Assembly: GCA_023129115.1 (NCBI GenBank)
Contig: JAGMCR010000002.1
Coordinates: forward strand, 78,753 to 142,752
From: Candidatus Iainarchaeum sp.
GTDB taxonomy: Archaea > B1Sed10-29 > WALL01
DNA: 64,000 nucleotides
Reading direction: 5' to 3'
Made by a program: the position numbers and the translations under genes. Positions 4,819 to 25,421 of the stretch are shown one piece after another. A model generated the notes under the pieces. That model made no database searches, was not told the DNA's origin, and worked only from the letters and a program-made list of their open reading frames with translations. Each line of letters begins with the position of its first letter. Position 1 is the first letter of the stretch.

Positions 4819-4938
4819 AGGGGGATACTTGACCTGGTCAAGCTGTCCTCCCGGGGCTCTGACCCTACGGTAGTAGAGCCTGCACCAAACTATTTATAGA
4901 ACTTTGAGCAGAAGCCCTTGCGATGGGCAGGATAAACC

Positions 4939-5508
4939 TCATTCAAAATGGTGTTTATGCTTTTCGAGTTTTTTCATGCGTTTCTTGTTTAGGTGAATTG
5001 TTTCTTTGGTTGCGCGGCTTTGGCGCTCGACTTCGAACGCGGTTATTCCAAGGTCGTGGGCCTCACACGCTGTTTTGATTGCACTGGCTGCTTGGACTAT
5101 GTCTTCTCTTCGTGTTGACGGGTTTTGTTTTTTGTCTTCATTAAGTATATCAATTGCGAGGTCAATTGTTTTGTTTGGCAGCCCTAACCTCTTGCCTTGT
5201 TTTTGGATGATTTCTTGGGGAGTTGGAGTAGCTATGCCCGTAGCCTTGCGGAAGTCCTCGATGTCTTCTAGGCTTAGATTAATGGAGTTATCGGCGGCTC
5301 TGAAGTTGTACCTGCCAATTTCCATCCCCTGGTTTTGGCCCGCAACCCAACTTATTAAGCTCGCTTTTTTCACTGGCTCCGCATTGTACGCAATAACCTC
5401 TTTTTTCTTCCTGAGCCTCTCGACTTCTTTTACGAGTGCATCTTCTGCCTCGCCGGGAAAAACACGCAGCCGCCTTACTTTTTCCAAGATTTGGTCCATT
5501 TTAGACAT
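4939..5508 (-). CDS. Protein with a single divergent TFIIB/TFB-type cyclin-fold repeat
   Basis: C-terminal half PQEIIQKQGKRLGLPNKTIDLAIDIL...AASAIKTACEAHDLGITAFEVERQSRATKETI follows the TFB second-repeat pattern; no zinc ribbon. Confidence 0.6.
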   Translation of the reverse strand: MSKMDQILEKVRRLRVFPGEAEDALVKEVERLRKKKEVIAYNAEPVKKASLISWVAGQNQGMEIGRYNFRAADNSINLSLEDIEDFRKATGIATPTPQEIIQKQGKRLGLPNKTIDLAIDILNEDKKQNPSTRREDIVQAASAIKTACEAHDLGITAFEVERQSRATKETIHLNKKRMKKLEKHKHHFE

Positions 5509-5742
5509 AACAACAAATGACTCAGTTCTAAAATAAAAACCTTTTTATCCCTCTTAGAGTTATGTGCAAAGCCGTGGGCTAACCTTAAAAATGGTTGATG
5601 AGTGTAGTTACGCAGTATACACCGCGGGATGGTATCCATGATAGACAGGTCATTTCCTAGGAAGTTCCGCGGAAATGAGGTGTGTGAGGGGCAAAAAGCG
5701 GTGCAGGCTCTATAGCCGTACGAGCTGTTCCCTCCCGAGGCT

Positions 5743-6079
5743 CAGCGTCCTGGGGGGCGCAGCCCCCCACGAAGCCCATGACGTTGACACAAGTCAACGT
5801 CCAGTCCACGGGAAGAGTCCCCTCAGTAATACTGTACTAGCTGCTGCCGGGCGGCCTTGCGCCGCCCTCGTCTAACGTGCCGCCTGAGTTTCAGGCGCTC
5901 CCGAGGCTCAGCGTCCTGGGGGGCGCAGCCCCCCACTACCCCGGGAAGCGCCCCCCCAGGTGAGTGGGTAAGAGCTCGCTTCCGCTCGCGGTTTTTGTCT
6001 CTGGGAATCGCAGATTCCCAAGCCTAACGTGCTGTACCGTGAATCCCAACGGATTTGCGGTTGTCCTGAGTTTCAGGCG
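5743..6079 (+). repeat. Two tandem non-coding mini-elements (about 155 and 170 bp) between core copies
   Basis: Each begins CAGCGTCCTGGGGGGCGCAGCCCCCCAC and ends ...CCTGAGTTTCAGGCG, followed by CTCCCGAGGCT. Confidence 0.85.
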
Positions 6080-6295
6080 CTCCCGAGGCTCTGACCCTAC
6101 GGTAGCAGAGCCCGCTTCACCCCAAGCATGAGGCCGGACTTGCGCATAAGCTTCCTAGGGGTTTGTGGGGTTTGGGCCAATAAATTTATCAGGTTGTGGC
6201 ATTCCTCGCTGAAGTATTGTCCCGCTGTCACTAAAAAACCCGTCCATTCCCTACAATAACGCTTAAAATATTGCCGTGGGGCGCATTCAGTCACG

Positions 6296-6335
6296 TTTAT
6301 AAACTATAACATGTTAGATATATCGGTACCGATAT
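6296..6335 (+). promoter_or_regulatory. TATA box plus perfect 16-bp palindrome (candidate PadR operator)
   Basis: TTTATAAA at 6296-6303; ATATCGGTACCGATAT at 6320-6335, just upstream of the ATG at 6350. Confidence 0.65.
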
Positions 6336-6349
6336 TAAAAGGTTTTGTT

Positions 6350-6847
6350 ATGAACTTGTTTGCTAGGGGCTTGCTGAAAATTTATGTCTTGTACATGGCC
6401 AAACAGGGTTCCATTTCAGGCAGTGATGTTGCCAAGAGCATAAGCGCTGCCACAGACGGGCGGTGGAAGCCGAGCTTTGGCTCGATTTACCCGCTGCTGG
6501 GGAGGTTTGAGGAAGATGGCCTGCTGTGCCAGGAGGCTAGGAAGGGAAAGCAGGTCTTTTACTCACTCACCAAGAAGGGTGTGAAAGAGTTCGAGAGGCA
6601 GAGGGAAAAATACATTGCCGAGTACGAGGACAACCTCGGGACGCTGTTCCCCCTGGTCTTCCAGCTGGCGCAGTTCGAGGCCGACAAAGAGCTGCAAGAC
6701 GCCGTCACGAACCTGAACCAAGTGTTCGCGAAATACAAGAAATACTTGTTCAACCTGGAGCTAAACGAAAAAGTGGAGAAAAGAAAGCGCATAATCAAGG
6801 ACTTGTCCGCCACCCTTTCGGACCACATGAGCAAGCTGGAGAAGTGA
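6350..6847 (+). CDS. PadR-family transcriptional regulator
   Basis: WKPSFGSIYPLLGRFEEDGLL...YSLTKKG winged-helix signature. Confidence 0.9.
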   Translation: MNLFARGLLKIYVLYMAKQGSISGSDVAKSISAATDGRWKPSFGSIYPLLGRFEEDGLLCQEARKGKQVFYSLTKKGVKEFERQREKYIAEYEDNLGTLFPLVFQLAQFEADKELQDAVTNLNQVFAKYKKYLFNLELNEKVEKRKRIIKDLSATLSDHMSKLEK

Positions 6848-6851
6848 TGTT

Positions 6852-8174
6852 ATGGAAAAATACGACGCAATTGTTGTGGGGTGTGGCATAAGCGGGCTGC
6901 TCGCGGGCCTTGCGCTTGCCAAGGAAGGAAAGAGTGTGCTAATGCTCGAGAAGGAAGACAAAGTTGGTGGCGCGTGCAGGTCTTACGACGTTGACGGCTT
7001 CGTGGTCGACACCGGGCCGCATGTGATTACTGGGCGGGGGAATGGGCCAACCCAATTGCTGATAGACAAGTATTTTGACGTGGTGCCGAAGTTCATTGAG
7101 AGCAGAAAATATTTCCTGCGGTTTGACGGCAAGTTATACGCTTTCCCTTGGACGATTCCGGCTTGGCTATCGTTCCCACCGTTCTCAGTCGAAGACAGGC
7201 TCATCATTGTCCAGGTGATGTTCAAGTTGTTGGCAGACTATGCCTCTGGCAAAGGCTTGGGGGATAAAGTGGTGTCTGATTACACGGCGGGCCATGAGCT
7301 CTCGGGAAGGGCGCTGCAGTTCATTGATTGCATGTGCCTGTTTTTGACGGGCGTTTGCATGGAGGAAACGCCCGTGAGCCGAATCCTTTCCGGGGGAAGG
7401 AGCAAAAACAAGACAAAAGCGGAAAAAATAAAAGAGATTTTGGTTGAAAACGGGAAGACCCATTACTATCCGCGTGGGGGGATCCAAACTATTGTTAACT
7501 CTGTATTGCAGTCCCTCCCGAAGAACGCCGGGATTCACAAGAGCGAAGAAGCAACCAAAATCGTGGTCAGTGGCGGGCGTGTTTCTGGTGTCGCCACGGA
7601 CAAAGGCGAGTACGCCACGAAGGTAGTGGTTTACGCTGGACCGAACAAGCTCCTTCCCGGCTTGGTGGAACTGCCCCAAGAGTACATCCAAAAATTCAGG
7701 GGCTTGAAGCAAGCGAGGACGCTGACGCTGTGGCTCGGGCTAAATAAAAAATACTTCGCAGAAGTTGGGACAGAGCTTTGGACCGAAACAAAAAAGCCTT
7801 GCTGGGCCGTCCCAACATCCAATTTTGATTCTGCACTCGCCCCGACGGGGAAGCACTTGGTGGGCTTCGGCTTCGTGCTCGCGGAAGATGAGCAGGTGAC
7901 CGACGACAACATTGACGACTATGTCAAAGTAGTCGAGGAAGTGTTCCCGGGCATAAGGGAACACATCGAGATGACCCATTACCAAGTGCTGGTTGCCGAG
8001 CAGGCAGCCAACGCAAAAGACAATTTCTTCAGCGGGGTCAAGCTGCCGGTCGATGGGCTGTACGCGGTCGGCACTGACGTCGACAGGCGGAGCATGGGCG
8101 TGACGAGGGCCGCGTACTCCGTAGTCTCGTTGATTGAAGCCCTAAAACAAGGCGGTTTTGTTACGAAGGTGTGA
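6852..8174 (+). CDS. FAD-dependent oxidoreductase, phytoene desaturase-like (COG1233)
   Basis: GCGISGL dinucleotide motif, EK..VGG.CRS, DTGPH, YPRGG, GLYAVG. Confidence 0.85.
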   Translation: MEKYDAIVVGCGISGLLAGLALAKEGKSVLMLEKEDKVGGACRSYDVDGFVVDTGPHVITGRGNGPTQLLIDKYFDVVPKFIESRKYFLRFDGKLYAFPWTIPAWLSFPPFSVEDRLIIVQVMFKLLADYASGKGLGDKVVSDYTAGHELSGRALQFIDCMCLFLTGVCMEETPVSRILSGGRSKNKTKAEKIKEILVENGKTHYYPRGGIQTIVNSVLQSLPKNAGIHKSEEATKIVVSGGRVSGVATDKGEYATKVVVYAGPNKLLPGLVELPQEYIQKFRGLKQARTLTLWLGLNKKYFAEVGTELWTETKKPCWAVPTSNFDSALAPTGKHLVGFGFVLAEDEQVTDDNIDDYVKVVEEVFPGIREHIEMTHYQVLVAEQAANAKDNFFSGVKLPVDGLYAVGTDVDRRSMGVTRAAYSVVSLIEALKQGGFVTKV

Positions 8175-8178
8175 AAAA

Positions 8179-9276
8179 ATGAAGTACAAAAAAATAGTTT
8201 TCCCGCGGGACGGTGCCGCCCATGACAACGTTATTGAGTGGTGGTACTTTAACGGGCACCTGAAGGACGGGAATGGCAATGGGTATGCCTTCATGGACTG
8301 CCTGTTCAAGGCAAAGCCCAAAGAAGTGAAACTTCCTTTTTTGAAAAAGATTCCACTCAAAAACGCTTATTTCGCCCACTCCCTTTTGTCTGACATCAAG
8401 GACAACGTGTTTTATTCAAGCGTGCAGCCCCTGAGCATACTCTCGAGGGACAGCTTTTCAAAGCCCTTGTTTTTCGTGAATTACTCCCACCCCTCTTTGG
8501 GCGGCTACCTGAATTACGAAATCGAGGAGATTGACGGGTTCAAGTATAGAATCAAGTCCGAGTTCTTTGACTTGACCTTGAGCTCGACCAAGAAGCCGCT
8601 GCTTGAGGGCGGGCGCGGGTTCATTGACTTGAATTCAAAGCAAACGTTTTACTACTCGCTGACAAACCTCGAGACAGAGGGATACGTCACTGTCAACGGC
8701 AAGCGAATCAAGGTAAAAGGCAAGTCCTGGATGGACCACCAGTGGGCCGACGTCCCGTACTCGAAGGACAAGTGGAGCTGGTTTTCAATCCAATTGGACA
8801 ACAACACGGAAATGGTTTGCTTTGAGTATGGCGACAAGAAAAAGAAGACTTATCTCGCGAGCATTTCGTACGCGAACGGAAGGGTCGCCCACGCCAGTGA
8901 CTTATCACTAACCCCATTAGGCCAGGTATGGGAGAGCAAGAGAACTGGCGCCAAGTATCCCCTTTCATGGAGGATTCAAGTCCCGTCAAAAAGAATTGAC
9001 CTCGTGGTGAGCCCCTTAATGAAAGAACAGGAAATAATTTTTGGGCCAATCAACTACTGGGAGGGGCCGTTAAAAGTAACGGGAAAAGTGAACAACAAAA
9101 AAGTGGCTGGAAAAGGATTTTCAGAGCTTGTCGGCTACCCGACAACAAAGTCTTTTGTTGAGTTTTATGAGCCAGAACTAAGGAAAATCGAGAAAATAGT
9201 TAAAAGAGACTTAAGCGAATGGGTGGGTCATACGATTAGTGGAAAGCCGGGGTTTGCCGCGGATCGCAGGAAGTGA
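8179..9276 (+). CDS. CrtC/AttH-like carotenoid 1,2-hydratase family (lipocalin-like) protein
   Basis: H...EWWYFNG, YYSLT, WMDHQW, W.WFSIQL, YP.SW and YWEG motifs. Confidence 0.85.
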   Translation: MKYKKIVFPRDGAAHDNVIEWWYFNGHLKDGNGNGYAFMDCLFKAKPKEVKLPFLKKIPLKNAYFAHSLLSDIKDNVFYSSVQPLSILSRDSFSKPLFFVNYSHPSLGGYLNYEIEEIDGFKYRIKSEFFDLTLSSTKKPLLEGGRGFIDLNSKQTFYYSLTNLETEGYVTVNGKRIKVKGKSWMDHQWADVPYSKDKWSWFSIQLDNNTEMVCFEYGDKKKKTYLASISYANGRVAHASDLSLTPLGQVWESKRTGAKYPLSWRIQVPSKRIDLVVSPLMKEQEIIFGPINYWEGPLKVTGKVNNKKVAGKGFSELVGYPTTKSFVEFYEPELRKIEKIVKRDLSEWVGHTISGKPGFAADRRK

Positions 9277-9282
9277 GGTTGT

Positions 9283-10116
9283 TTGGGCTTTGGTGGTTTC
9301 TTGCTTCACTTGCGGCCGCTGTCGTGGCCACTTGTCGCACTGCAAGTCTTGACGGGGTTCGTGCTCGCCGGCGGCAACACTGTCTCTCTTGAGGTCTTGT
9401 TAGGTTTCTTTGTCATCGTTGTCTGTATGAACGGGGGAACACTGGCGTTCAACTCTTACTTCGACAGGGACGGTGGAAATGTGGGGTGGCTGGACAACCC
9501 ACCCAAAACAACTAAGCAAACATATTACTTGTCGCTCGCGCTGATGGTATTTGGTGTGCTCGCCGCCTTGCTGGTGTCCCATGAATTTTTCTATTTGGCT
9601 TCCGCATCTTTCGTTGTTAGCGTTGCTTATTCACATCCTTGGTTCAGGCTCAAGTCGGTGCCACTGGCAGACGCCATTTGTAGTGGCGTGGGTTACGGGG
9701 TGCTCATGTTTCTTGGGGGTTGGGTACTCGCGTCACCAGTCTTGACTGCCAAGGCCGGGGTCGTGTGCGTGGGAATGTTCCTGGCGTTCATGGCTGGGGT
9801 TCCATTGACCCAAATATATCAAATGCGTGAAGACAAAAAGAGGGGTGATAGGACCACTGCATTGGCCTTGGGACCGGACAAATCAAAGTGGATGTTTTAC
9901 TTCTTTGGCACGCTTTCTGTAGCCGTGTTGTTGTTTGCTGTTATGGAGGGGTTCTTGGGGAAACTTGCGCTACTGGCGGGCGTGCCTTTATTCTGGCTGG
10001 CGTTACAAGTACGGAACATCAAATCATTCAAGCACAAGCAAAAAGTTTATGAGGCATACGTCGTGGTTGTTGTTGTGGATGTGGTTATCATTCTTTCAGA
10101 ACTCGTTCCAGTGTAA
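9283..10116 (+). CDS. UbiA-family prenyltransferase
   Basis: RPLSW N-terminus, NSYFDRD, AYSHPWFRLK, QMREDKKRGDRT; multi-TM. Confidence 0.85.
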   Translation: MGFGGFLLHLRPLSWPLVALQVLTGFVLAGGNTVSLEVLLGFFVIVVCMNGGTLAFNSYFDRDGGNVGWLDNPPKTTKQTYYLSLALMVFGVLAALLVSHEFFYLASASFVVSVAYSHPWFRLKSVPLADAICSGVGYGVLMFLGGWVLASPVLTAKAGVVCVGMFLAFMAGVPLTQIYQMREDKKRGDRTTALALGPDKSKWMFYFFGTLSVAVLLFAVMEGFLGKLALLAGVPLFWLALQVRNIKSFKHKQKVYEAYVVVVVVDVVIILSELVPV

Positions 10117-10250
10117 CACACCCCCTTTCCGCGGAAGCTTCCCCGGAAATGACTTGGGTGTGGCTGATTTTGGGCGCAGGCTCTAGAGCCATACGAGCTG
10201 TTCTCCCCCGAGCTCTTTTATACTTCTTTTGACTAAAATTGTTTACTCTT

Positions 10251-11306: not shown

Positions 11307-11378
11307 GCCCAATCCCTCCCGGGGCTTTCCGGGGGAGGTGGGCAACGCAAAGCTTAAATATTAGAAATGCGTACTATA

Positions 11379-11486
11379 GGGCGCTGTAGGTTTGAGAGGT
11401 TGTGAACCGCAAGGCTTGCAACGAATTATGTCCCGAAAGTGGCATAAGGGCCGTGTAGAAAATAGCTCTTAAACCTGTAGCACTTC
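11379..11486 (+). ncRNA. Candidate structured non-coding RNA (closing helix plus two GNRA hairpins)
   Basis: 11383-11398 pairs with 11466-11481 (16 bp including G-U); hairpins 11399-11422 (GCAA loop) and 11426-11447 (GAAA loop); TATA-like CTTAAATA at 11353. Confidence 0.5.
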
Positions 11487-11652
11487 AGCGCTTTCTGTTG
11501 TTTCAACTGTGTATGGACCTTAGTTCTCACGCTTCATTTCCGCGGAACTTCCTAGCCGCAGGATTTATAGCCGTACGAGCTGTTCCCTCCCGAGGCTCTC
11601 AGACCACGTCAAGGAGCCCCCGCTCAATTCCGCACCGGTTTACATGCCTGTT

Positions 11653-11686
11653 TATAAAGGTTTACGATATATCGTACACCTTTATA
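11653..11686. promoter_or_regulatory. 34-bp near-perfect palindrome with TATA-like arms upstream of ATPase gene
   Basis: TATAAAGGT-T-TACGATATATCGTA-C-ACCTTTATA. Confidence 0.65.
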
Positions 11687-11710
11687 TAATAGTTCAAACA
11701 CCGATTAAGC

Positions 11711-12901
11711 ATGGAGCTAGGACTCTGGAAGGTTGTGGAGCAATGGAATTACTGGAAGGAAAAGCCAGAAACCGGTATTCCCAGGGACGTGACCGCAGAG
11801 GCAATGGAGTTCTTTAAAGGCAGCGAAGCGCTTTATTTTTTTGGCCCGCGGCGAGCCGGGAAAACATTTGTTTGCATGCAGCTGCTGTCAAAGCTGTCAA
11901 AGAAGCACGGGAAGAAATCTTGCTTGTACGTGAACTTTGAGGAGCCTGCTCTTGCCGGGAACCTGCGCACGGAATTCATAGAAGAAATCGTTGTAGAATT
12001 CAAAAAAGTGCATGGGAAGTGGCCTCGCTTCGTTTTCCTTGACGAAGTCCAGAACGTTAAAGGCTGGGAGCGCTGGGTCCGCGGAGCAGTGGACAGGAAA
12101 CGGTTCAAGGTTTTTGTCACTGGATCTTCTGCGAAACTCTTGAGTTCAGAGTTCTCCACTTCTCTTGGGGGGAGGGGGATAGGCTTTCTGGTATTGCCGT
12201 TTTCCTTTAGCGAGTTTAGGCGTGCAAAACCAAAAGCGGGGCTCAAGGAGTACCTTGAGATTGGGGGCTATCCAGCGGTTGTACTGGAAAAAAACGAGCG
12301 CAAGCGCAGGAGGATGCTGGAAGAGTATTTTGACACTGCCATCATGAGGGATATAGTGGCTAGGCACGACGTGAGAGACGTGCCAACATTAAGAACGCTT
12401 GCCGTTTACTTACTGACAAATTCTGGAAAGCGCTTCAGCTACAATAAGCTTCGGGCAATGACACATCTCTCTTTTGACGCGCTTAGGCAGTACCTGTCAT
12501 ATCTTGAGGACGCATTAGTGGTTTTCCAAGTACCGTATTTTTCGTACTCCATGAAAAAAGCGCTTGAAAAGCCCCGCAAGTACTATGCTTATGACCTTGG
12601 GCTGCAGGGAGCTGTATCAAAGTCGTTTAGTCCGGACTGGGGAAGAAAAGCCGAGAACGCGGTTGCAATAGAGCTGGTTCGGCGAAGAAAAGAAATTCAA
12701 TACTACTCAAACAAGTTTGAAGTCGATTTCATAATAAAAGAAGGAACAAAGATAAAGCCGGTAAATGTCTGCTACTCAGAGAAACCACCGCAAAGGGAAA
12801 CAAAAAGCCTTGAAGAGTTTTCCAAAAAACACAAGTCAGAACCCCCTCTGTTGCTTTGCGGGAAGGATAACATCTTGAAGTGGCTGAAAACAAACCAATG
12901 A
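11711..12901 (+). CDS. AAA_14/DUF4143 ATPase
   Basis: GPRRAGKT Walker A, FLDEVQ Walker B, TGSS, GGYP, KYYAYDLG, EVDFI. Confidence 0.92.
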   Translation: MELGLWKVVEQWNYWKEKPETGIPRDVTAEAMEFFKGSEALYFFGPRRAGKTFVCMQLLSKLSKKHGKKSCLYVNFEEPALAGNLRTEFIEEIVVEFKKVHGKWPRFVFLDEVQNVKGWERWVRGAVDRKRFKVFVTGSSAKLLSSEFSTSLGGRGIGFLVLPFSFSEFRRAKPKAGLKEYLEIGGYPAVVLEKNERKRRRMLEEYFDTAIMRDIVARHDVRDVPTLRTLAVYLLTNSGKRFSYNKLRAMTHLSFDALRQYLSYLEDALVVFQVPYFSYSMKKALEKPRKYYAYDLGLQGAVSKSFSPDWGRKAENAVAIELVRRRKEIQYYSNKFEVDFIIKEGTKIKPVNVCYSEKPPQRETKSLEEFSKKHKSEPPLLLCGKDNILKWLKTNQ

Positions 12902-12911
12902 AAAAATGCTC

Positions 12912-12971
12912 CTTGACGTGGCCAAGCCGCCCTCCCGGGGCTCAGCGTCCTGGGGGGCGCAGCCCCCCCAC
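12912..12971 (+). repeat. End module B + core + GGGGGGCGCAGCCCCCC hairpin
   Basis: CTTGACGTGGCCAAGCCG-CCCTCCCGGGGCT-CAGCGTCCTGGGGGGCGCAGCCCCCC; related module B at 4828, 16189, 24286. Confidence 0.85.
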
Positions 12972-13024
12972 TGGGCGGTTCGGCACGCGCGGGGTTTATT
13001 AACCTTCTTTTCGTTGGCTGTGCA

Positions 13025-13855: not shown

Positions 13856-13870
13856 TGGGCTCCAAGAAGT

Positions 13871-14130
13871 GAATCCCTCCCAAGGCTCCATCTCAGCGTC
13901 CTTAGGGGGAGCGCAGCTCCCCCTGGCCCAGACGAACAACAACCGAACATCCTGTGGGGGATGTCCGGTATCCTGCGGGATGTACGTCATACCCTGGGAA
14001 GCCTCACCCCCTCAGTAATCCTGTACTAATCTGTCTCTTGGGGCCTTGTGCCCCAAAGCCTAACGTGCCAGCTGAGTTTCAGCTGAATCCCTCCCGAGGC
14101 TCTCATTCTATGGTAGTAGAGCCTGCGCCA
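13871..14130 (+). repeat. Non-coding mini-element between two long tRNA-end-like cores
   Basis: GAATCCCTCCCAAGGCTCCA (13871-13890) and GAATCCCTCCCGAGGCT (14085-14101); interior shares CAGCGTCC..GGGGGAGCGCAGCTCCCCC, CCCCTCAGTAAT and CTAACGTGCC with 5743-5897. Confidence 0.85.
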
Positions 14131-14192
14131 AAGTGTCTTGCAAGTTGATTAGCAGCAAAAGCCTGACACAATTTTCCGAGCTTGGAACACTT

Positions 14193-16112: not shown

Positions 16113-16308
16113 TTTTCTCACCGGTATACTACATCCCTCGAAAACACATTTATAATTTAGTCTTCCGGAATATAATGGTGGGGTACTCCTTAGCCTAGCC
16201 AAGCAGCCCTCCCGAGGCTTCTATCTATTAACGCCTCAAAAAAGCCATAAATCCTAACCGCACGCCACTGTTCTTATCATCTTTGTGCCCTCGTGCTAGA
16301 CATTACCC

Positions 16309-17193: not shown

Positions 17194-17470
17194 TAATGCA
17201 CTGCCGCATTATAAACCTTCCCCAAGCTTTTCAACCGAACAAACCGCATTAAAACACTGGTGAGAACAGAGCCAAAAACTGTGTTTTTTGGATTTCAGGG
17301 CTTGATTGGCCTGGTTTAGACACCCCCTTTCCGCGGAAGCTTCTTGAAGAACCCTCCCAGGCGAATCCAAAATCGCATGGGGGACTTGAAGTTTATTAAA
17401 GAGGATATGGGTAAGGGTTATTATCTGGTTAGGAAAACATTTAACTTGGAGAAAAAAGAGGTGGTATGGA

Positions 17471-18115
17471 TTGAGGGAAGAAGGCTTGTTAAGAGACTTG
17501 GCCGAGAAAAAGAAGGCCGGAAAAATAACCTCAGAGGAAGCGGTACGAGAACTTCATAAGCGCGGCCTTCAGCATGGCAAGTATTCAAACCCTTGGATAA
17601 CGATTATTCCCATGATAGGCGGGGGCATGCTCTGCTTTATTAGTGGACTAGCAAAGGCAACAGGCATGCCAATGCTGGAACCACTTACGAAGCTGCCAGC
17701 GTTTGTCTTTCCCCCAGTACTAATTGGTTTAGCAGTTATTTTTGGTATTCTGGCTATGGGGTTGATATTATACAGCGCTTGCTCAAGGGTGATGAATGGG
17801 GGGACAACACCACGATATGCATCTGAGACTACCGTGCTCACGAGAAATGGGCTTTATGGAGTTATGCGGCACCCTGAAAATATTGGTTTTTTCATGTTTT
17901 TTGTTTCCCTCACAGTGTTCTCAAGCAACCACGTTCCTTTCAATGTTTTGTCAGTGATCGGCACCATTTTACTTACTATAGGCTGCTATTTTGCTTGCGT
18001 GGAAGGCGAAAAACTTAACGTGTTGAAGTGGGGCGATGAGTACAAGCAGTACATGGAAGAAGTCCCAAGGTTCAACTTCGTGCTTGGCATTTGGAGGCGG
18101 CTCAAGAAAAAGTGA
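17471..18115 (+). CDS. ICMT/PEMT-family membrane methyltransferase
   Basis: GLYGVMRHP and WGDEYKQYMEEVPRF motifs. Confidence 0.85.
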   Translation: MREEGLLRDLAEKKKAGKITSEEAVRELHKRGLQHGKYSNPWITIIPMIGGGMLCFISGLAKATGMPMLEPLTKLPAFVFPPVLIGLAVIFGILAMGLILYSACSRVMNGGTTPRYASETTVLTRNGLYGVMRHPENIGFFMFFVSLTVFSSNHVPFNVLSVIGTILLTIGCYFACVEGEKLNVLKWGDEYKQYMEEVPRFNFVLGIWRRLKKK

Positions 18116-18233
18116 CGCACATCATTTCCGCGGGAGCTTCTTGGGAAATGGCCTGTGTGCCCCGTTCTGGGGGCGCAGGCTCTGTACCTCTGCGGCTAGG
18201 ACCAAAACCCTTAAATAGTATTGTTACTGTAAT

Positions 18234-18250
18234 ATTAACATATTGTTAAT
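18234..18250. promoter_or_regulatory. Inverted repeat upstream of AbiE pair (candidate autoregulatory operator)
   Basis: ATTAACA-TAT-TGTTAAT, downstream of CTTAAATA. Confidence 0.5.
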
Positions 18251-18263
18251 TTGGGTGTAATCA

Positions 18264-18761
18264 ATGAAGGGTCTTTCGGGTAAGGAGTTGGAGATGGTCT
18301 CGTTTCTCGAGCTGAAGGAAAAGTATTTTTTCACGAGGAGCGACGTGAGGCGATTTTTCAAGAGCGAGAACGAGATGAACGTCTACCTGCACAGGCTTAA
18401 GAAAAAAGAAAGAATCGTGAAGCTGAACAGAAGCAAGTATTTCCTTGTCCCAGTGAAAGCGTTCGGGGGCTTCTGGGCAGAGCACCCCCTCGTGATTATT
18501 GATGAAATCTTTAACGGGGAGAACTACTTCATTAGGGGGATGGCTGCAGCACATTACTGGGGGTTGATAGACCAGATTCCCACGCAGGTAGAAGTGGCTT
18601 GCACGAACAAGCAAGGAAAGAAAAAGATTTTTGGGTTCATTATCCTGTTCAAGAGGGTGAGGCCAGCAAGCATGAAGGGCTTCGTGAAGAGGAAAATCGG
18701 GAAGCATCCTTTCCGGATAATGCCAAAGAAGGGGGTTGAGGAATGGCTGAAATCTCGTTGA
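18264..18761 (+). CDS. AbiEi-like type IV TA antitoxin/regulator
   Basis: wHTH N-terminus (LHRLKKKERIVKLNRSKY), AAAHYWGLIDQIP; overlaps the toxin gene. Confidence 0.85.
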   Translation: MKGLSGKELEMVSFLELKEKYFFTRSDVRRFFKSENEMNVYLHRLKKKERIVKLNRSKYFLVPVKAFGGFWAEHPLVIIDEIFNGENYFIRGMAAAHYWGLIDQIPTQVEVACTNKQGKKKIFGFIILFKRVRPASMKGFVKRKIGKHPFRIMPKKGVEEWLKSR

Positions 18762-19504
18762 TGAACACGGCAGAACTAAAGCACGTTGCCGGAAAAATGG
18801 GGTTCAACTTAATCTACCTGGAAAAGGATTATTTCCTGACGCTGCTGCTGTATTTGCTCAGGGACATTAGTGGCATTTGCTTCAAAGGCGGCACTGCATT
18901 GAACAAGATATTCCTCAATCACACGCGCCTCAGTGAGGACCTGGACTTCACGTGCACTGGCGACTTAAAAAAAGTAAAAAAGGAAGTGCTGGAAGTACTG
19001 GGAGAAAACAAAAGCATTTTCACTCGTCACGAGTTTGATAACCAGACACAAAACTTCTTCCGCCTAAAAGTATTCTACAAAAGCGATTTCTCCAAGAACA
19101 GCTACGTGGTTCTTGACGTGAACAGCAAAGCATCGGTTCACAAGAAACCAAAAGCAGAAGTAGTGCCGCACTTCTATGAATCTATTCCACAATTCAAGGT
19201 TAAGACACTGGCACCTGAAGAACTTGTAGCTGAAAAAGTGAGGGCACTGATAACCCGGAACCAGCCCCGGGATTATTATGATGTCTACACTCTCCTGCAA
19301 AATGGTTACAAGGTGAACAAAGCCCTGCTAAGAAAAAAGTTGGCCGAAGCAAATGAATGCTTTGATATTGACAGGATATTCGTAAACGCCAAGAAGATTT
19401 ATTCAAAGTGGGATGAGGATGTTGCCCATTTAACAAACAAACCAGTAACGTACACCGCTGCCATCAAGGCTCTCCAGAAAGAGTTCGGGTACAAGAGCAA
19501 ATAA
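18743..19504 (+). CDS. AbiEii-like nucleotidyltransferase toxin
   Basis: EKDY, FKGGTAL, RLSEDLDF, AEKVRAL, PRDYYD. Confidence 0.92.
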   Translation: MAEISLMNTAELKHVAGKMGFNLIYLEKDYFLTLLLYLLRDISGICFKGGTALNKIFLNHTRLSEDLDFTCTGDLKKVKKEVLEVLGENKSIFTRHEFDNQTQNFFRLKVFYKSDFSKNSYVVLDVNSKASVHKKPKAEVVPHFYESIPQFKVKTLAPEELVAEKVRALITRNQPRDYYDVYTLLQNGYKVNKALLRKKLAEANECFDIDRIFVNAKKIYSKWDEDVAHLTNKPVTYTAAIKALQKEFGYKSK

Positions 19505-19695
19505 CAGGCACCTCGTTTCCGCGGAGCTTTCTGGAAAGCAAGGGGGGCACCCCCGCGCGTCCCCCGACGTTGGCCTTAAGCCAACGTCCAGCTGCAACGC
19601 CCTCCCCGCTTGGCGCCTTCGGCGCAGAATCTAGAGCCACACGACTTGGCCCCCCTTAGGCTCTAATCTCGCTGTGTTTCCGGGGCTCTTGCTTT

Positions 19696-20364
19696 TCAGC
19701 GCCAGCTTATCTCGCCTGTTTTTAGGACAGAGCCGTCGTTCATGTCTATGTACGCCACCAGTCCTTTCCCCCCTTCGCCGCTGACAGGGCCCAGCCTTAT
19801 GTCATAAACCGGATAATCAGCGACCAGGTAATTGTAATCTGCCGTGACCGACATTGCCCCCAGGCCTTCCAAACCAGTTTGTTGCTTTGCTATTTCAACG
19901 GCTTCCGGGCTATCAATGTTCCACTTGGACGTATCCGCCAGTCTTTTCCCGGCGTGTTCTTCCCAGCTGCCCTCGCTTATCTCCATCGCGTCTTTGCCCT
20001 CGTAGCACCCGAACCCACCTGAGAGCAGCTCGCCTTTGTTTATGACCGCGAAGACGAGCGTGAACGTGTTGTCAGACTGCTTTTTCTCGAATGTCACTAT
20101 CCACGTATCGCTCCTGCCGTCCTCAACCGCCGCGTGGCCTTTCTTGTGCCCGACAACGGTTCCTCCAGCCCCTATATCGCGGAGGTGCACGTCACCGAAC
20201 TCGGCTGACGCGCGCTCGTAAGCCATGTCAAATGCTTCCCTGGCCGTTACTTCATTCACCGGAGCCGCGGGTGCCTTTGCCCCCTCTGCCCCCTCGCCTG
20301 CTCCCTGGACGCAGCCCATCGTAACTGCAAGCACTAACAGCAAAACCAATAATGATTTCCTCAT
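19696..20364 (-). CDS. Hypothetical lipoprotein (PepSY-like)
   Basis: Lipobox TMGC; IDSPEAVEIAK...YIDMNDGSVL. Confidence 0.7.
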   Translation of the reverse strand: MRKSLLVLLLVLAVTMGCVQGAGEGAEGAKAPAAPVNEVTAREAFDMAYERASAEFGDVHLRDIGAGGTVVGHKKGHAAVEDGRSDTWIVTFEKKQSDNTFTLVFAVINKGELLSGGFGCYEGKDAMEISEGSWEEHAGKRLADTSKWNIDSPEAVEIAKQQTGLEGLGAMSVTADYNYLVADYPVYDIRLGPVSGEGGKGLVAYIDMNDGSVLKTGEISWR

Positions 20365-20557
20365 CAAAAGACCTCCAGCAGGAGGATACGCCGAACGCCT
20401 ATAAAAAGGCACTCTTTGGGCCCAGGCTCTAGACCCGTGCGATTTATTCCCTCCCGAGGCTCCATTACCACGTCAAGGAGCCTCTGCCTTTTTTGCATGA
20501 GGGAAGTTTATATATGCTCACTGTGGCAAGAAGATACATAATAGAGGAGGATTTAGT

Positions 20558-21172
20558 TTGTTTGATTTGATCGATTTTTTAGAGGAACACTGGAGAGCGG
20601 TTGGCATTGCTTTAATAATCTTCCTTATATCCTGTATCTTCACGCTTGCCTCAATCTTAATTGGACAGATGGAACCGGTAGTGGATATTCTAATAACAAA
20701 TGGTTCTCCACATTTCATTAGTTTTGTTACTTTTTCATCGTCAATGACCAACATCTTAACTACTATGGGCTGGCTAATTGCTTTTTGTTGGATGGCCGCT
20801 GTTTACTTGAATGAATTGGCGATATGGAACTATGGAAAAGCAAACGAAGAAAAGTTTTATTTGGGTCCGGGAGATGATAACGAACATTTTGACAAGCATG
20901 GAGAGAAGTATCACCCGAAGAAAGAAAAGAATCAGGAAATGACAATAATGGCTGATGGATTACTCGAATTCAAAAGAATCCTGCTCGCTGTAGTTTATGT
21001 GGGCATAATCCTATTTGCGATAGGAACAATTTTTAGTTTGGATAGTTTAACAATGTTCTATTTGGGGCATATCAGCTTTTCGTTTGTTAGTTTATTTGTT
21101 ATGATGGCGTTCAGCATTTTTAAATTATACCCTAAGATTGCACCATCCCACAGAACCGATGGAGAGGGTTAA
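20558..21172 (+). CDS. Hypothetical membrane protein (low GC)
   Basis: About 4 TM segments; upstream GGAGG. Confidence 0.65.
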   Translation: MFDLIDFLEEHWRAVGIALIIFLISCIFTLASILIGQMEPVVDILITNGSPHFISFVTFSSSMTNILTTMGWLIAFCWMAAVYLNELAIWNYGKANEEKFYLGPGDDNEHFDKHGEKYHPKKEKNQEMTIMADGLLEFKRILLAVVYVGIILFAIGTIFSLDSLTMFYLGHISFSFVSLFVMMAFSIFKLYPKIAPSHRTDGEG

Positions 21173-21189
21173 GTCGCAGTTGGGATAAT

Positions 21190-22620
21190 ATGAAAAACAC
21201 AAAGAAAGCATCAAAAACAGCGCATAAGAATCAACGCGATTCATTTGTTAGATCCCAAAATGAACATTGCTTTCTGAAAGATAAACAAAAAATAAAGTAT
21301 CATTCCTTTATTCTTCTGGAGATAGTTCCTCTGGAAAGAATCCAAAAACTTATCCATGGGCTTGACAAGCTGTATGCTAAAGCTTCAGTGGCATCTGAAT
21401 CTCAATTGAGATATAAGGACATTCTTTCAACCAGTCATCTAAAACTCTTCGAGAGAAATACAATAAATTTACCGTATGTAGTTACAAAAAAACTCAAAGG
21501 CAAAATTTTGTCTAATTGTGTATTTCACGATCTCGGAGATCATATTCGGCACATCCATATCTCAATTTACAAAGTTTTGCCATCTACCGTGATTCTTCAG
21601 ATTCAAGTACATCTAAATGATAAACTAAGCAAAAAGATAAACGATGTTATTTATAGCTACCACAAAGAGATTAGGAAACCAGTTGAGACACCTAGGGGCA
21701 AATACACCCAGATATATGGCCCCCCTCATCAGAAAGAGAATCAAATTTATCAAGTTAGAAAAGACTTGCACAAGGAAGCTATTGATTTCTTAAAAAAGTA
21801 TTTCACAGGATATTTTTTTGAATTGTCTGATGAGAGCATCTCGGTAGTACCCTCAATCGATTTGTTTTCTTTGGATTATCCTAACGAAGATGGCCAAATT
21901 TTGGATTGGGGCGATAAAAACCATGGATTCTTTCAGTGTTTCAGCACATATATCGGGCCGTGGGATTCTTTTAAGTACAAAAACTACCTGTTTTGTCTTG
22001 AATCCAAAAGAAACGCCAAGTTTGAGAATTATCTGATATTTGCCAACAGAAAGACCACATCGAATAATATGTATCCCGATATTGATGCTTCCATTGAAGA
22101 AACCCTTAATTTCTGTTCCTTTGATTTAGTGGCCATTAACAGGTGGATTAAAGTTCAAGAAGAGATGGTAGGAACGCTTAATTCAACCGTGTCGAGGGAA
22201 ATATCTCAGATACAACAAAATAGATTTAGTAAAGCTATAGAAACCAGAAAATCTGTTCTTAAGAGTATTTTTCCCTTTGAACGCTTTGCAACAGAGTATG
22301 TAAGATACAAAATGATTCCTGATAAATTTGAATTTAAAAGCCTTAAAGATGAGAGAGCCCCCGACAAACAAATTGACTTGTTCAATGGATTGAAAGAAGG
22401 AATCACTGCGAAAATTACGGAACTACATGAATTGATTAATGGATTTACAAGACAGCATGAAAGTATTATGGCCTTAAAAAATCTGGAATTCAGTAAGAAT
22501 ATGCAAAACCTTATTATCATATTGACAATAGCTCTTATAGTGTTAACGATAATCCAAATAGGCATAGGGGCATATGGATTAAAAACACCTGGTTTAATAG
22601 TGAGATTTCTCTTCGGATGA
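21190..22620 (+). CDS. Hypothetical protein with C-terminal coiled coil and TM anchor (low GC)
   Basis: 476-aa ORF ending in hydrophobic LIIILTIALIVLTIIQIGIG. Confidence 0.75.
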   Translation: MKNTKKASKTAHKNQRDSFVRSQNEHCFLKDKQKIKYHSFILLEIVPLERIQKLIHGLDKLYAKASVASESQLRYKDILSTSHLKLFERNTINLPYVVTKKLKGKILSNCVFHDLGDHIRHIHISIYKVLPSTVILQIQVHLNDKLSKKINDVIYSYHKEIRKPVETPRGKYTQIYGPPHQKENQIYQVRKDLHKEAIDFLKKYFTGYFFELSDESISVVPSIDLFSLDYPNEDGQILDWGDKNHGFFQCFSTYIGPWDSFKYKNYLFCLESKRNAKFENYLIFANRKTTSNNMYPDIDASIEETLNFCSFDLVAINRWIKVQEEMVGTLNSTVSREISQIQQNRFSKAIETRKSVLKSIFPFERFATEYVRYKMIPDKFEFKSLKDERAPDKQIDLFNGLKEGITAKITELHELINGFTRQHESIMALKNLEFSKNMQNLIIILTIALIVLTIIQIGIGAYGLKTPGLIVRFLFG

Positions 22621-22863
22621 TAACTCGGGGGTTATCCTCTAATCCACCTACCCGTCTGAGCTTTATTCCGCACCAGTCTATAAATAGTCCTTTGAGCAGA
22701 GCCTCGGGGGCATGAGGACCGACCCTTACAATACCGGTACGAAGCTAGTGAATTGCCTTGAGCGGGTTAGGGGGTGTAGAGCCAACTTTATTAATAGAGG
22801 CGTGCATAAAGCCAGTAGAGGGCAATTTATTTATATAGCCGGTTCATTTGTATGGCTTAGAGG

Positions 22864-23598
22864 GTGAACAGAGAGATGGTTGGCGCAGTTATGGATTCGC
22901 AGTACGTACTGAACACTTACTCACCAGAATTAAGTCGTGCTATCTTCTCAATCCAAAGCCCCTTAACACAGGGCTACACCTACTTGCGGAGGAACCGCAA
23001 GGCCAAGACCGTCGAAAAGCTCTTTGAAGAGCTTGACATGCTCACACACGCAGAGAAAGAAGAATTGATAACCGAGTTAATTGCGTACCTCCCCAAAGAC
23101 TCCAGCATGTCCGAGTTCGAGAGAGCCAAAAAAGAGCTCGCGAACCTTGACAAAAACGCCAAGATAAACAACTTGCTGAAAGACCTAAAGGTTAAGTACG
23201 AACGGCTAAGCCAAAAAGACAAACTAGAAATATTTAAGCTATCAATATCAAAAACAACGCCCACCCTAGTCGCGCTCAGGGACTTCATATCCGAGAACAT
23301 GCTTGAAGCAAAAGACATCGAAGCACTCATGGTCATAGACCAAGCGGTTTACGTCGCTGGAACGCTATGCGACGAGATACTGAAAGCAATTGAAAAGAAC
23401 CAAGACGAAAGAGTGGAACTACTTCACGCTTTCTTGTTTTTCCTTCTCCTGGAGCTAGAAGCGATTCGCCGCGGCACAGTCGAGCCCGAAACGCTTTACG
23501 ACAATATCGCGTTCATCACGAGCTTCACAGACAAGACCCGTGAAGAGCGAAGCATTGAAATCAAGCAAAGCGTGTTCGGGGTAGCGGGAGTAGCTTAA
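22864..23598 (+). CDS. Hypothetical helical protein coupled to PIN gene
   Basis: 244 aa; TAATG stop/start overlap with the next gene. Confidence 0.7.
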   Translation: MNREMVGAVMDSQYVLNTYSPELSRAIFSIQSPLTQGYTYLRRNRKAKTVEKLFEELDMLTHAEKEELITELIAYLPKDSSMSEFERAKKELANLDKNAKINNLLKDLKVKYERLSQKDKLEIFKLSISKTTPTLVALRDFISENMLEAKDIEALMVIDQAVYVAGTLCDEILKAIEKNQDERVELLHAFLFFLLLELEAIRRGTVEPETLYDNIAFITSFTDKTREERSIEIKQSVFGVAGVA

Positions 23599-24275
23599 TG
23601 AACTCCATAGACTCGAACGTGGTCATTGCAGTAGCGAACCCGTTTGACTACTCCCACAAGACATCAGTCAAAACAGTCAAGAACCTAGACGAGCTGCTCG
23701 TCCTCCTTAACGTGTTCACGGAAAGCAAGGCAACCATACAACGGAAGTACAACAAGTCGCTCGCGAAGTCGGTAACGGAAATAAGAAAAATCACGGCCGA
23801 GAGGAACTCCCTGCTCTTCGGCAAGCTCGTTGTCCAAGCCCTCGAAAAACTCAAGAAAAACAACCCAAATCTAGAAGGCTTCATAGACCTCGTCTACTCT
23901 GAATTCCGGACCTGCGAAAACCAAAAGGACATCAGCGCAGCCATGAGCCGACTAAACGTATTTGGAGTAGCCTTAATCAAGTCACTGGAGGATGTCCTGA
24001 GGAAAGAGCGCCCAGACATTGAGTTTTATGAGCCAACCGAAGAGTTCAACAAAATGCACCTAAAAGTCTATGACCTGATTGCCGGGTCATATTTCCAGGA
24101 CCGAAACGACAAGCTCATCTACACCGACTGCGTGGCCCTCGCGCAGATTGAAAACGACAAGCTCACGTTCCACACGTTTGACGAGGAGTTCCACAAGACC
24201 GCGAAAAGCACTAATGCTTCACTACCCCAGAAATACTCCAAATTAGTGGATTTCAACAAGCTAAAACCAAATTAA
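23598..24275 (+). CDS. PIN-domain protein
   Basis: IDSNVVIA, ES, NDKLIY and HTFD acidic motifs with a large helical insert. Confidence 0.7.
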   Translation: MNSIDSNVVIAVANPFDYSHKTSVKTVKNLDELLVLLNVFTESKATIQRKYNKSLAKSVTEIRKITAERNSLLFGKLVVQALEKLKKNNPNLEGFIDLVYSEFRTCENQKDISAAMSRLNVFGVALIKSLEDVLRKERPDIEFYEPTEEFNKMHLKVYDLIAGSYFQDRNDKLIYTDCVALAQIENDKLTFHTFDEEFHKTAKSTNASLPQKYSKLVDFNKLKPN

Positions 24276-24357
24276 ACGGGGACACTTGACCTAGTCGAGC
24301 CGCCCTCCCGAGGCTTTTTATATTTTAACCGCGTAACTGCTTGAGCGGGGTGCGTTT

Positions 24358-25293
24358 ATGGACTATCAAAGATTCATAACAGAAAAAACAAAAATGATTT
24401 CTGATGCCGTTGGGGGCGGCGTTGCAATCAATGCCCTGTCCGGGGGAGTGGACAGTTCAGTTGTTACAGTGCTTGGCCACAAGGCAATCGGCGACAGGCT
24501 GAAGACTTATTTTGTCAACAGTGGGCTGATGAGGGAGGGCGAGGCCAAGCAAGTCGTGGACTGCTTTGCAGGGCTCGGGATAGAAGTCAATGTGCTCGAG
24601 GCGCAGGAAGAGTTCTTCAGTGCCCTGAAGGGGCTGGAAGACCCCGAGGAAAAAAGGAATGCAATCACCAACAGTTTTTATGCAAACGTTTTCAGCAGGC
24701 TTGTCAGGGAAAGCGGGGCAAAGACCCTTCTGCAGGGCACCATACTCACTGACGTTGACGAGACAGTGGCGGGAATAAAGAGGCAGCACAACGTCCTGGA
24801 GCAGCTTGGGATTGACACCGAGAAGGAATATGGCTACAAGGTCCTTGAGCCACTCATTGAGCTGAGGAAGGACGGCGTGAGGGAGCTTGGGAAAGCGCTT
24901 GGAATGCCAGAAGACGTCTTCACGAGGATTCCCTTCCCCGGCCCTGCACTGGCCGCCAGGGTGATTGGGGAGGTAACGCCCGAAAGAGTGGGGCTGGCCA
25001 GGAAGGCGACAAAAATAGTTGAGGAAGAGCTCAAGGACTCAAACGCATTCCAGTATTTCGCGGTGCTCATGAGCGACAGGGCCACGGGAATGAGGGAAGG
25101 GAAGAGGGCGTTTGGCGAAATAATCGTGGTAAGGTGCGTGGAAAGCATTGACGCGCGAACCGCAACCCCAACGCAGCTGCCCTGGGAAAAGCTAAAGGCA
25201 ATAGAGCAAAAGATTACGTCTGAGCTGCCGGAAGTCGTCAGGGTCCTGTACGACCTAACCCCAAAGCCGCCCTCGACAATAGAATTCGTATAG
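24358..25293 (+). CDS. guaAB: GMP synthase subunit B (ATP pyrophosphatase)
   Basis: ALSGGVDS, DPEEKR, QGTI..D, IKRQHNV, PFPGPALAAR, YDLTPKPPSTIE. Confidence 0.93.
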   Translation: MDYQRFITEKTKMISDAVGGGVAINALSGGVDSSVVTVLGHKAIGDRLKTYFVNSGLMREGEAKQVVDCFAGLGIEVNVLEAQEEFFSALKGLEDPEEKRNAITNSFYANVFSRLVRESGAKTLLQGTILTDVDETVAGIKRQHNVLEQLGIDTEKEYGYKVLEPLIELRKDGVRELGKALGMPEDVFTRIPFPGPALAARVIGEVTPERVGLARKATKIVEEELKDSNAFQYFAVLMSDRATGMREGKRAFGEIIVVRCVESIDARTATPTQLPWEKLKAIEQKITSELPEVVRVLYDLTPKPPSTIEFV

Positions 25294-25421
25294 CGCATAA
25301 GCTTCTATGGTGTCTCCTGAAACAATTGGATGGGAATGCAAGGCCCCCCCCGAGGCCCTTATCATCCAGTGCTGGATTCCGCACCAAACTATTTATAGAA
25401 CTTCGAGTCATCATTTATGGA

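Follow-up and report, generated by a model that had tools for sequence, protein, structure and literature searches.

A 64-kb stretch of DNA from Candidatus Iainarchaeum sp. (the window, corresponding to positions 78753-142752 of contig C12) contains a row of unrelated genes separated by copies of a tRNA 3' end. This row, referred to here as the array, forms a genomic island of 28 kb that was probably built by repeated site-specific integration, with tandem accretion of units, at the 3' end of a tRNA-Thr(CGT) gene. The island extends from this gene to at least position 24315 of the window. The array measures 28.1 kb, or 2.3% of the 1.25-Mb genome (denoted as G000; 19 contigs, 88.6% complete), and its GC content is 0.487, compared with 0.560 for the genome. 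Positions refer to the window unless a contig is named, with negative values lying to its left.

The sequence that punctuates the array is the 3' end of a tRNA-Thr. ARAGORN identified 38 tRNA genes in the whole genome, among them a tRNA-Thr(CGT) on the + strand at C12:74872-74945 (window -3880 to -3807), 3.8 kb left of the window. The original prediction, made from the window alone, had anticipated a + strand tRNA in that direction ending in the motif. The last 13 nt of the gene are an exact copy of the core and comprise the 3' strand of the T-stem, the 3' strand of the acceptor stem, and U73, so the earlier parse of the motif as T-stem, acceptor strand, and U discriminator of a tRNA was correct. 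Within the 28.1 kb downstream, 13 more copies of this tail (≤1 mismatch) follow in the same orientation. The two other tRNA-Thr genes, located on contig C4, end in one-base variants of the core and have no array. When ARAGORN was applied to the 64-kb window alone, it called no tRNA and overlooked an intron-bearing tRNA-Leu located there.

The core motif, CCCTCCCGRGGCT, has 15 matches in the window when up to two mismatches are permitted. Thirteen of these lie on the + strand between 4846 and 25357 (seven exact, five with one mismatch, and the copy at 25345 with two), and the remaining two, at 50942 and 53661, are distant, on the - strand, and carry two mismatches each. In 100 shuffled windows, the mean number of matches was 4.1 and the maximum was 10, with none reaching 15. 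Degenerate cores are present at 10203 (CTCCCCCGAGCTC) and 19650 (CCCCCCTTAGGCT), each preceded by a recognizable left arm (see below), and at 18173-18200 a left arm is present and the core is absent. These numbers agree with the initial count of 12 good and four degenerate copies, and the sequences given earlier for the long copies at 13871, 14085, and 20449 are correct. Across the genome (≤1 mismatch), 15 of 25 matches fall in C12:74932-103055, every one on the + strand, and three of the other 10 correspond to the 3' ends of the remaining two tRNA-Thr genes. The motif is therefore not a genome-wide repeat of the repetitive extragenic palindromic kind, the case named beforehand as decisive against the idea. 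The copies fall between long open reading frames (ORFs), except that at 25345, which, if the TauE ORF is read at its longest (TTG start at 25326), overlaps the initial codons of that ORF. Accordingly, the statement that all copies are on the + strand and intergenic stands for the strand of the 4846-25357 set and, on this reading of the TauE ORF, fails at 25345 for the location. Two further cores, at -1213 and -481, lie between the tRNA gene and the window; the array placed originally at 4828-25407 exists, and its true start is farther left, at the tRNA.

Comparison with related genomes supports the variable nature of the locus. In G002, which belongs to the same genus, the left flank and the tRNA are present at 78% identity, and the DNA from window position 26171 onward is present at 79–82% identity. 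In G002, the 5.4 kb between the tRNA and this shared flank is unrelated DNA that contains neither a core nor a homolog of any array gene. Since synteny resumes at 26171, the variable stretch reaches 26170, and since the interval is filled with other DNA, the site is variable rather than cleanly empty. The comparison proposed for detecting cassette gain and loss thus yielded the tRNA and the far flank without the array, but not a clean empty site. G004, a 98% complete genome of the same family and another genus, has arrays at two tRNA-Thr loci. One locus, at a contig start, contains four cores in 3 kb; the other, at an intron-bearing tRNA-Thr(TGT), consists of four units whose cores decay distally. 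The anticipated decay of cores with distance from the tRNA is therefore found in both G000 and G004, with exceptions. An AbiE cassette is shared between the two genera: window 18202-19525 is 78% identical in DNA to the second unit of the tRNA-Thr(TGT) row of G004, where it lies behind an A-type arm. Matches to A-type arms are present in G004, G005, G003, and G009. A right flank common to G000 and G005 was considered and rejected, as the resemblance covers only about 10 nt after the core and the G005 locus gave no hit to the guaA-like protein.

Three sequencing runs of one study contain the stretch as contigs, which were compared with C12:74801-94800. In the likely source run, which is not independent of the assembly, the depth was 18.5–24.3 in 26 of 30 bins; the exceptions were the tRNA bin (27.4) and three bins with mini-elements (58.6, 34.6, and 31.9). 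This even depth argues against a chimeric assembly. The likely source run tiles the array in pieces ending at repeats, and the other two runs carry the same sequence at low depth in every bin. Joints between separate parts (e.g. 3619 to 8834 and 10031 to 18014) have sides of 20–56 letters that lie in repeated arms or mini-elements, and were counted neither for nor against excision.

The integrase and its relatives

The third unit of the array encodes a tyrosine integrase. The 390-aa ORF lies on the + strand, starting at C12:78360 (392 nt left of the window) and ending at window position 777, and its domain matches Pfam PF00589 with an E-value of 2e-24. It is the sole PF00589 match in G000. The best NCBIfam model is that of archaeal XerA (131 bits, below the cut-off of 220), whereas the integron integrase models score far lower relative to their cut-offs (TIGR02249, 46.8 bits against 265; NF011946, 37.4 against 435). 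A tyrosine recombinase is thus present inside an element and beside its putative attachment site, with the start codon 77 nt past the core at -481. The tRNA match of this core extends through the T-loop into the T-stem, and it is followed in order by CCA, a C-type right arm, a TATA-like box, and the integrase ORF. Cores border the unit on both sides, and two units separate it from the tRNA. The part of this unit that lies in the window is as follows.

1..777 (+): 3' part of the integrase gene (258 of 390 codons), PF00589
1239-1913 (+): cargo, 224-aa ORF of no known family
1870-4818 (+): cargo, 982-aa subtilase (PF00082, E 5e-44)
4821..4858 (+): C-type left arm 4821-4845 and core variant TCCTCCCGGGGCT 4846-4858, forming the right end of the unit

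A remnant of an integrase gene is found in the last clear unit, where a 103-nt copy (approximately 22669-22774) retains the promoter and the first 21 codons, with 95% identity over residues 1–21. The original proposal that the array was assembled from small non-autonomous cassettes describes most units, which lack an integrase, but not the third, whose intact gene lies outside the 4828-25407 range first given, or the last, with its remnant. As a separate observation, an inverted partial copy of the core (8–12 nt) directly precedes the integrase start codon at C12:78341-78359, at window position ~22703-22715, and in G005. This partial copy corresponds to the 5' acceptor strand of tRNA-Thr, and it may be a binding site through which the integrase controls its own expression.

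Several cores differ from the local tRNA in ways that are tied to the elements. The integrase unit ends with the two-base variant TCCTCCCGGGGCT in both G000 and G005, which belongs to a different genus, while the local tRNA reads CCCTCCCGAGGCT; the same C-type arm ends the integrase element of G005. CCA follows three core copies and is encoded by none of the three tRNA-Thr genes of G000. The copies at 13871 and 14085 start with GAAT, a sequence found in a tRNA-Thr of G004, whereas the local T-loop ends with AATT. Because of these differences, these cores do not appear to be fresh local duplications; judging from their sequences, some arrived with elements and were not copied from the local tRNA.

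A scan for relatives of the integrase, using one genome per species, returned 39 loci. The closest relative (~84–85% identity) is on a contig of G005, a metagenome-assembled genome (MAG) of Candidatus Iainarchaeum. The others are 25–54% identical (mostly 38–51%) and belong mostly to Micrarchaeota, Aenigmatarchaeota, and Undinarchaeota, together with several euryarchaeal MAGs. ARAGORN called a tRNA in 17 of the 39 loci, and in six the tRNA lies on the same strand within 350 nt upstream of the integrase gene (Thr and Asp twice each, His, and Leu). In six relative loci, a copy of the last 13 nt of the tRNA (≤1 mismatch) is located 5.4–10.5 kb downstream, with two such copies in one Micrarchaeota locus. 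The blocks of identity span 11–18 nt and cover the same portion of the tRNA as in G000. To judge by these alignments, a short site at the T-stem and the acceptor 3' strand is a habit of this integrase family, and it is mainly because the relatives share this habit that we credit the integrase with the array. No relative was found in the viral contigs searched. Relatives of 42–49% identity also occur on contigs binned as Thermodesulfobacteriota, Zixiibacteriota, WOR-3, and Thermotogaceae (loci L059, L062, L065, and L073), which could be mis-binned archaeal contigs or reflect cross-domain spread.

The observations can be combined in the following scheme. The acting enzyme would be the Xer-like integrase of the third unit, or relatives that came and went. 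An incoming circle would carry, as its attP, a stretch matching the tRNA tail (T-loop end through discriminator, sometimes plus CCA), with a left arm on one side and a right arm on the other. Recombination between this site and the tail of the tRNA gene, or a copy of that tail, would then generate a unit flanked by the 13-nt core. The present array would comprise one unit with an intact integrase, one with a remnant, and about a dozen lacking it, which either lost the gene or moved in trans. The inner junctions of composite units would have decayed since, and three junctions would have been added by a separate family of mini-elements.

Units, arms, and cargo of the array

Counting decayed junctions, 16 units of 166 bp to 5.3 kb are present from the tRNA to position 24315. 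A few recurring sequences, the right arms, follow many cores, and a few others, the left arms, precede many cores; a right arm and a left arm of one kind together form an inverted repeat. The own right and own left arms are clearly complementary in four of the 16 units, with scores of 24–36 (shuffles: mean 11.4, sd 2.6, max 24), and A-type or C-type arms are recognizable at nine more junction sides. Pairing of the arms as a general rule was therefore rejected. The left ends of C-type units and of mini-elements contain short palindromes immediately before the core. An Rfam scan of positions 1-30000 at E-values up to 1 gave no match, although whether Rfam holds an attC model was not checked. Putative TATA-like boxes lie just inside several right arms; judging from these, promoters appear to be carried by the units themselves. 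Genes on the - strand occur in four units. The cargo differs from unit to unit and consists of unrelated genes, including about ten ORFs of no known family. The features downstream of the integrase unit are as follows.

4859..5742 (+): unit with A-type arms at both ends (right 4859-4886, left 5701-5729), core 5730-5742, arm score 32
4939-5508 (-): TFIIB-repeat ORF in the preceding unit
5743..6090 (+): two hairpin-rich mini-elements (5743-5895 and 5909-6077), core CGCTCCCGAGGCT after each (5896 and 6078)
6091..10215 (+): unit with A-type right arm 6091-6115, A-type left arm 10174-10202, and decayed core 10203-10215; cargo of PadR, a flavin adenine dinucleotide (FAD) amine oxidase-like gene, CrtC-like hydratase, and UbiA prenyltransferase
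From 10216 (+): DUF7118 gene unit, ending at core 11314-11326
Following the DUF7118 unit (+): 271-bp unit with A-type left arm 11556-11584, core 11585-11597
11598..12942 (+): AAA_14/DUF4143 ATPase unit with C-type right arm 11598-11623, left arm 12908-12929, core 12930-12942, arm score 28
From 12943 (+): unit with an endonuclease/exonuclease/phosphatase-family gene, core 13875-13887, then CCA
13888-14088 (+): mini-element (214 bp), then core 14089-14101
14102..16219 (+): unit with A-type right arm 14102-14129, C-type left arm 16180-16206, core 16207-16219; contains an S9 prolyl oligopeptidase gene on the - strand
16220..20461 (+): composite stretch with decayed inner junctions (left arm 18173-18200; left arm 19622-19649 with decayed core 19650-19662), ending with left arm 20420-20448 and core 20449-20461, then CCA
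18264-19504: AbiEi/AbiEii toxin-antitoxin pair in the composite stretch
20462..24315 (+): last clear unit, C-type right arm 20462-20488, C-type left arm 24278-24302, exact core 24303-24315; cargo of four ORFs of no known family and the integrase remnant
24358-25293 (+): GMP synthase C-terminal-subunit-like (guaA-like) gene
25326-26165 (+): TauE exporter gene
25345-25357: decayed core with an A-type leader remnant, between the guaA-like and TauE genes

The right arm and leader of the AAA_14/DUF4143 ATPase unit resemble those of the integrase unit. The core at 11314-11326 is followed by its own inverted complement (11314-11345 in total), which together would form a strong hairpin just after the DUF7118 gene; neither arm type is found beside it, and it could be a junction, or else a terminator similar to the core. 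On C13, the guaA-like gene has a paralog with 45% identity. The guaA-like and TauE genes, neither found in the G002 interval, are possibly two old cassettes.

Two side observations concern the same kinds of ends. The palindrome TTCCGCGGAA, or a one-base variant, occurs at 5665, 10127, 11538, 17329, and 18126. One of these copies has no arm, and the others precede A-type left arms by approximately 18–65 nt (mostly 46–65). The palindrome may serve as a terminator or a protein binding site of the cassette end. On contig C13 of G000 (142768-143620, - strand; locus L002), a lone unit of 840 bp, bearing an A-type right arm and flanked by two tRNA-Thr cores, lies downstream of a SIS-domain gene. No tRNA was called there, and the bases before the first core resemble a decayed T-loop. 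This locus is a secondary site of the same system.

Mini-elements and alternative explanations

The three smallest units of the array (5743-5895, 5909-6077, and 13888-14088) have modules in common, and these modules recur elsewhere. They are found at 22 places in G000, 34 in G002, and three in G001, and in none of 28 other genomes searched; in G000, 36 modules were judged real out of 102 pattern candidates. Representative sites in G000 are as follows.

C4:6895-7140: mini-element site
C5:68740-69031: mini-element site
C18:14036-14579: mini-element site
C1:65320-65960: mini-element site

The end of a mini-element consists, in order, of a GC-rich hairpin, a short single-stranded motif, a second hairpin, a few bases, and a copy of nearby sequence. 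Reading the modules suggests that the stem of the second hairpin varies by paired changes. No clear terminal inverted repeat, as in miniature inverted-repeat transposable elements, was seen; many copies are present, and the elements occur in both orientations relative to the neighboring gene. An Rfam search of the C1 cluster returned only a chance hit.

The copied sequence corresponds to whichever gene end adjoins the element. A copy of the adjoining tRNA 3' end accompanies mini-elements at 12 of the 38 tRNA genes, including tRNA-Thr. The intron-bearing tRNA-Leu missed by ARAGORN (window 35758-36030; C12:114510-114782) is followed by a mini-element and then a 13-nt copy of its tail with two mismatches. 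Other mini-elements lie beside the ends of protein genes, namely the C-terminus of the thermosome, a gene end on C5, and a 16-nt overlap of two genes on C19. In the C5 pair, the 39-nt copies differ at five sites, all synonymous, a pattern more in keeping with import of a gene end than with fresh duplication. Within 500 nt, 21 of the 36 modules are flanked by an exact repeat 10–24 nt long. Comparison of the two genomes at tRNA-Glu(ttc) shows a filled site in G000 and an empty one in G002; the 19-nt repeat extends 4 nt beyond the tRNA. Since the repeats match any adjoining gene end, a single integrase with a fixed core does not explain the mini-elements. Target duplication would fit the match to any target and the occurrence in both orientations, but it does not fit the variation in length or the fact that the differences are all synonymous. 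The origin of the cores at 5896, 6078, and one of 13875/14089 probably lies with mini-elements. The view that each core is the footprint of a cassette insertion would hold for most cores, but not for these three, which flank a separate family.

Several points weigh against accretion by the integrase. Its query found no relative in G004, which is 98% complete and has arrays, or in G002. No excision, circle, or empty site within the population was seen in the runs, whose contigs break at repeats and whose joints have short sides. Clear complementarity between own arms is limited to four of the 16 units, and five junctions lack a recognizable right arm. The farthest core, at 24303, is exact while inner cores are decayed, so growth did not proceed simply from the tRNA end. 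Finally, the mini-element mechanism could have made more of the array cores than the three allotted to it.

One alternative holds that the cores are target-site duplications, produced by a transposase with staggered cuts around the last 13 bp or more of the tRNA gene, in the manner of casposases (14–15 bp, often at tRNA 3' ends), and that the mobile units are terminal-repeat elements, inserted successively at the tRNA end, in which the integrase is mere cargo. Inverted ends of ~28 bp do adjoin the direct repeat in some units, and tandem casposons at one site have been published (PMC6563490, in the part covered here), but no Cas1 was found in G000 or in the 12 other genomes of its order that were searched, and no reverse transcriptase, Y1 transposase, or above-cut-off DDE match was found in G000. 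The mini-elements also speak for this explanation through their occurrence in both orientations, their repeats matching the local target, and the filled and empty sites at tRNA-Glu(ttc); the 10–24 nt range of these repeats is nevertheless unlike a fixed stagger. Duplication of the local target also conflicts with core variants that are common to another genus or carry the CCA or GAAT that the local gene lacks, and the relatives of the supposed cargo integrase adjoin tRNA genes with the same short repeats. We consider this explanation unlikely.

Specific agents other than the integrase were also considered and rejected. For casposons, PF01867 matched neither G000 nor any of the other 12 genomes searched within the order; in the class, five of 31 genomes had a match, in other families, four of them over the cut-off. 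A retro-element, in which the tRNA tail and CCA would be a primer copy, was set aside as G000 has no RVT_1 match and two mini-element repeats pass beyond the tRNA into the genomic flank. For IS200/IS605, G000 contains four TnpB-like genes without a Y1 transposase, and no mini-element match is found on C3 or C13, the contigs that carry these Cas12f1-like_TNB genes (C3:10561-10764, C3:79611-79808, C3:102282-102485, and C13:134192-134389). A DDE transposase is represented in G000 by a single sub-threshold fragment.

Improbable, too, is a dedicated capture platform in the integron sense, with a resident integrase, a fixed site, captured cassettes that are promoterless or self-expressed, folded attC-like cassette ends, and a benefit to the host. 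The many small units of a single gene or operon with conserved ends speak for it; four units carry - strand genes, which speaks against it. The short palindromes at left ends just before the core would suit folded sites; no Rfam family matched the region at E-values up to 1. The adaptive or defensive cargo (carotenoid-modifying operon, peptidases, AbiE, and ATPase) and the sharing of cassettes between genera are in its favor. The arrays of G004 occur without a detectable integrase. In G000, the integrase scores far below the cut-offs of the integron models, and it constitutes a core-flanked third unit, and thus a mobile component rather than a fixed platform. The label "integron-like" in the original prediction is apt as an analogy, but the integrase models, the position of the integrase inside the array, the - strand genes, and the TATA-like boxes of the units do not agree with it.

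That the repeats are functional punctuation (terminators or processing signals) spread by duplication without mobility is very improbable: the core at 11314 with its inverted complement would fold like a terminator and the copies were described as intergenic and on one strand, but the motif is a tRNA tail that begins at tRNA-Thr(CGT), is nearly restricted to this locus, and separates unrelated low-GC genes absent from the congener, with an integrase and an integrase remnant among them. Repeated integration at the tRNA-Thr(CGT) tail remains the explanation that we favor.

Implications and relation to known systems

The integration model can be extended to a wider proposal, which we regard as doubtful. 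Iainarchaeota and neighboring DPANN archaea would possess a cassette-exchange system of their own, in which promoter-bearing cassettes with standard ends are inserted at tRNA-Thr by an Xer-like integrase, resident or not. For the mini-elements, this enzyme or one akin to it would serve, and the copy of the target gene's 3' end beside the terminal hairpin would determine the target. If true, the integration site would be programmed by homology and able to shift between tRNA and protein genes. The genomes of DPANN archaea are very small, and little is known about gene uptake in these organisms; the array is one site where foreign genes are filed. Among the foreign genes are a carotenoid-modifying operon, a nuclease-family gene, the AbiE toxin-antitoxin pair, and genes for an ATPase and two large peptidases. 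Units of cassette size with standard ends, common to several genera, offer a concrete and testable route of gene flow. An integrase with a 13-nt site is a possible recombination tool for archaea, and the mini-elements beside copies of gene 3' ends may point to a new insertion mechanism.

The comparisons below draw on parts of the cited sources. In the literature covered, no description was found of a run of this length, of minimal cassettes, of such a row in DPANN archaea, or of the mini-elements; supplementary site tables (PMC6563490 and the tycheposon study) may bear on the array lengths already known. In Firmicutes, integrative and conjugative elements (ICEs), integrative and mobilizable elements (IMEs), and integrase-less remnants flanked by att sites, the cis-mobilizable elements (CIMEs), accrete in tandem at tRNA 3' ends, and composite units can move together (PMC5704250). 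As in these bacterial systems, integration at a tRNA 3' end, decay with retention of the att site, and a further integration alongside would result in a row separated by att sites. The array differs in its archaeal host, the lack of conjugation genes, its some 15–20 units, its Xer-like integrase, and its conserved ends, and most of its units are of 0.3–5 kb with a single gene or operon.

Prochlorococcus tycheposons are cargo elements with tyrosine recombinases that reside at tRNA genes, with neighbors split by partial tRNAs. Newcomers push older elements into the island, where pieces of integrases and additional partial tRNAs are scattered (10.1101/2020.12.28.424599). The array likewise contains cargo elements separated by tRNA tails, probably displaced older units, and an integrase fragment. 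Tycheposons, however, are bacterial and number one or two per genome on average, whereas the array is a long run at one locus with conserved pairs of arms. Archaeal elements with tyrosine integrases also form arrays at tRNA genes (PMC6563490; PMC8371274). The array shares with them an integrase beside the att site, short repeats of the tRNA 3' end, and tandem integration, and each tandem case given in the part of PMC6563490 covered here is a pair: one gene holds two casposons, and one site holds two near-identical proviruses.

Integrons have been reported in Archaea (PMC9668308; bioRxiv 10.1101/2022.02.06.479319). The array resembles them in its small gene cassettes with recombination sites in between and in its diverse cargo. 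It differs in that a non-integron integrase is itself located in a cassette, the insertion point is a tRNA tail, the units apparently have their own promoters, and some genes are on the - strand. The array thus functions like an integron, but it is not one, by its integrase and its layout.

Casposons insert at tRNA 3' ends, have terminal inverted repeats, generate direct repeats of ~14–15 bp, and occur in tandem copies (PMC6563490). The array resembles them in its insertion at a tRNA 3' end, its direct repeat, here of 13 nt, its tandem arrangement, and the inverted ends that are clear in four of the 16 units. In contrast to casposons, no Cas1 was found in G000 or its order, and some of the cores are variants borne by the elements.

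In its overall outline, the original prediction of a tRNA tail, repeated insertion, and a copy left by each event agrees with these results, and its autonomy and integron components need correction in view of the integrase in the third unit and the scores of the integrase models. The array is of a known kind, a row of elements at one tRNA gene, and differs from the known examples in the number of its units, their small size, their standard pairs of arms, and the DPANN host.

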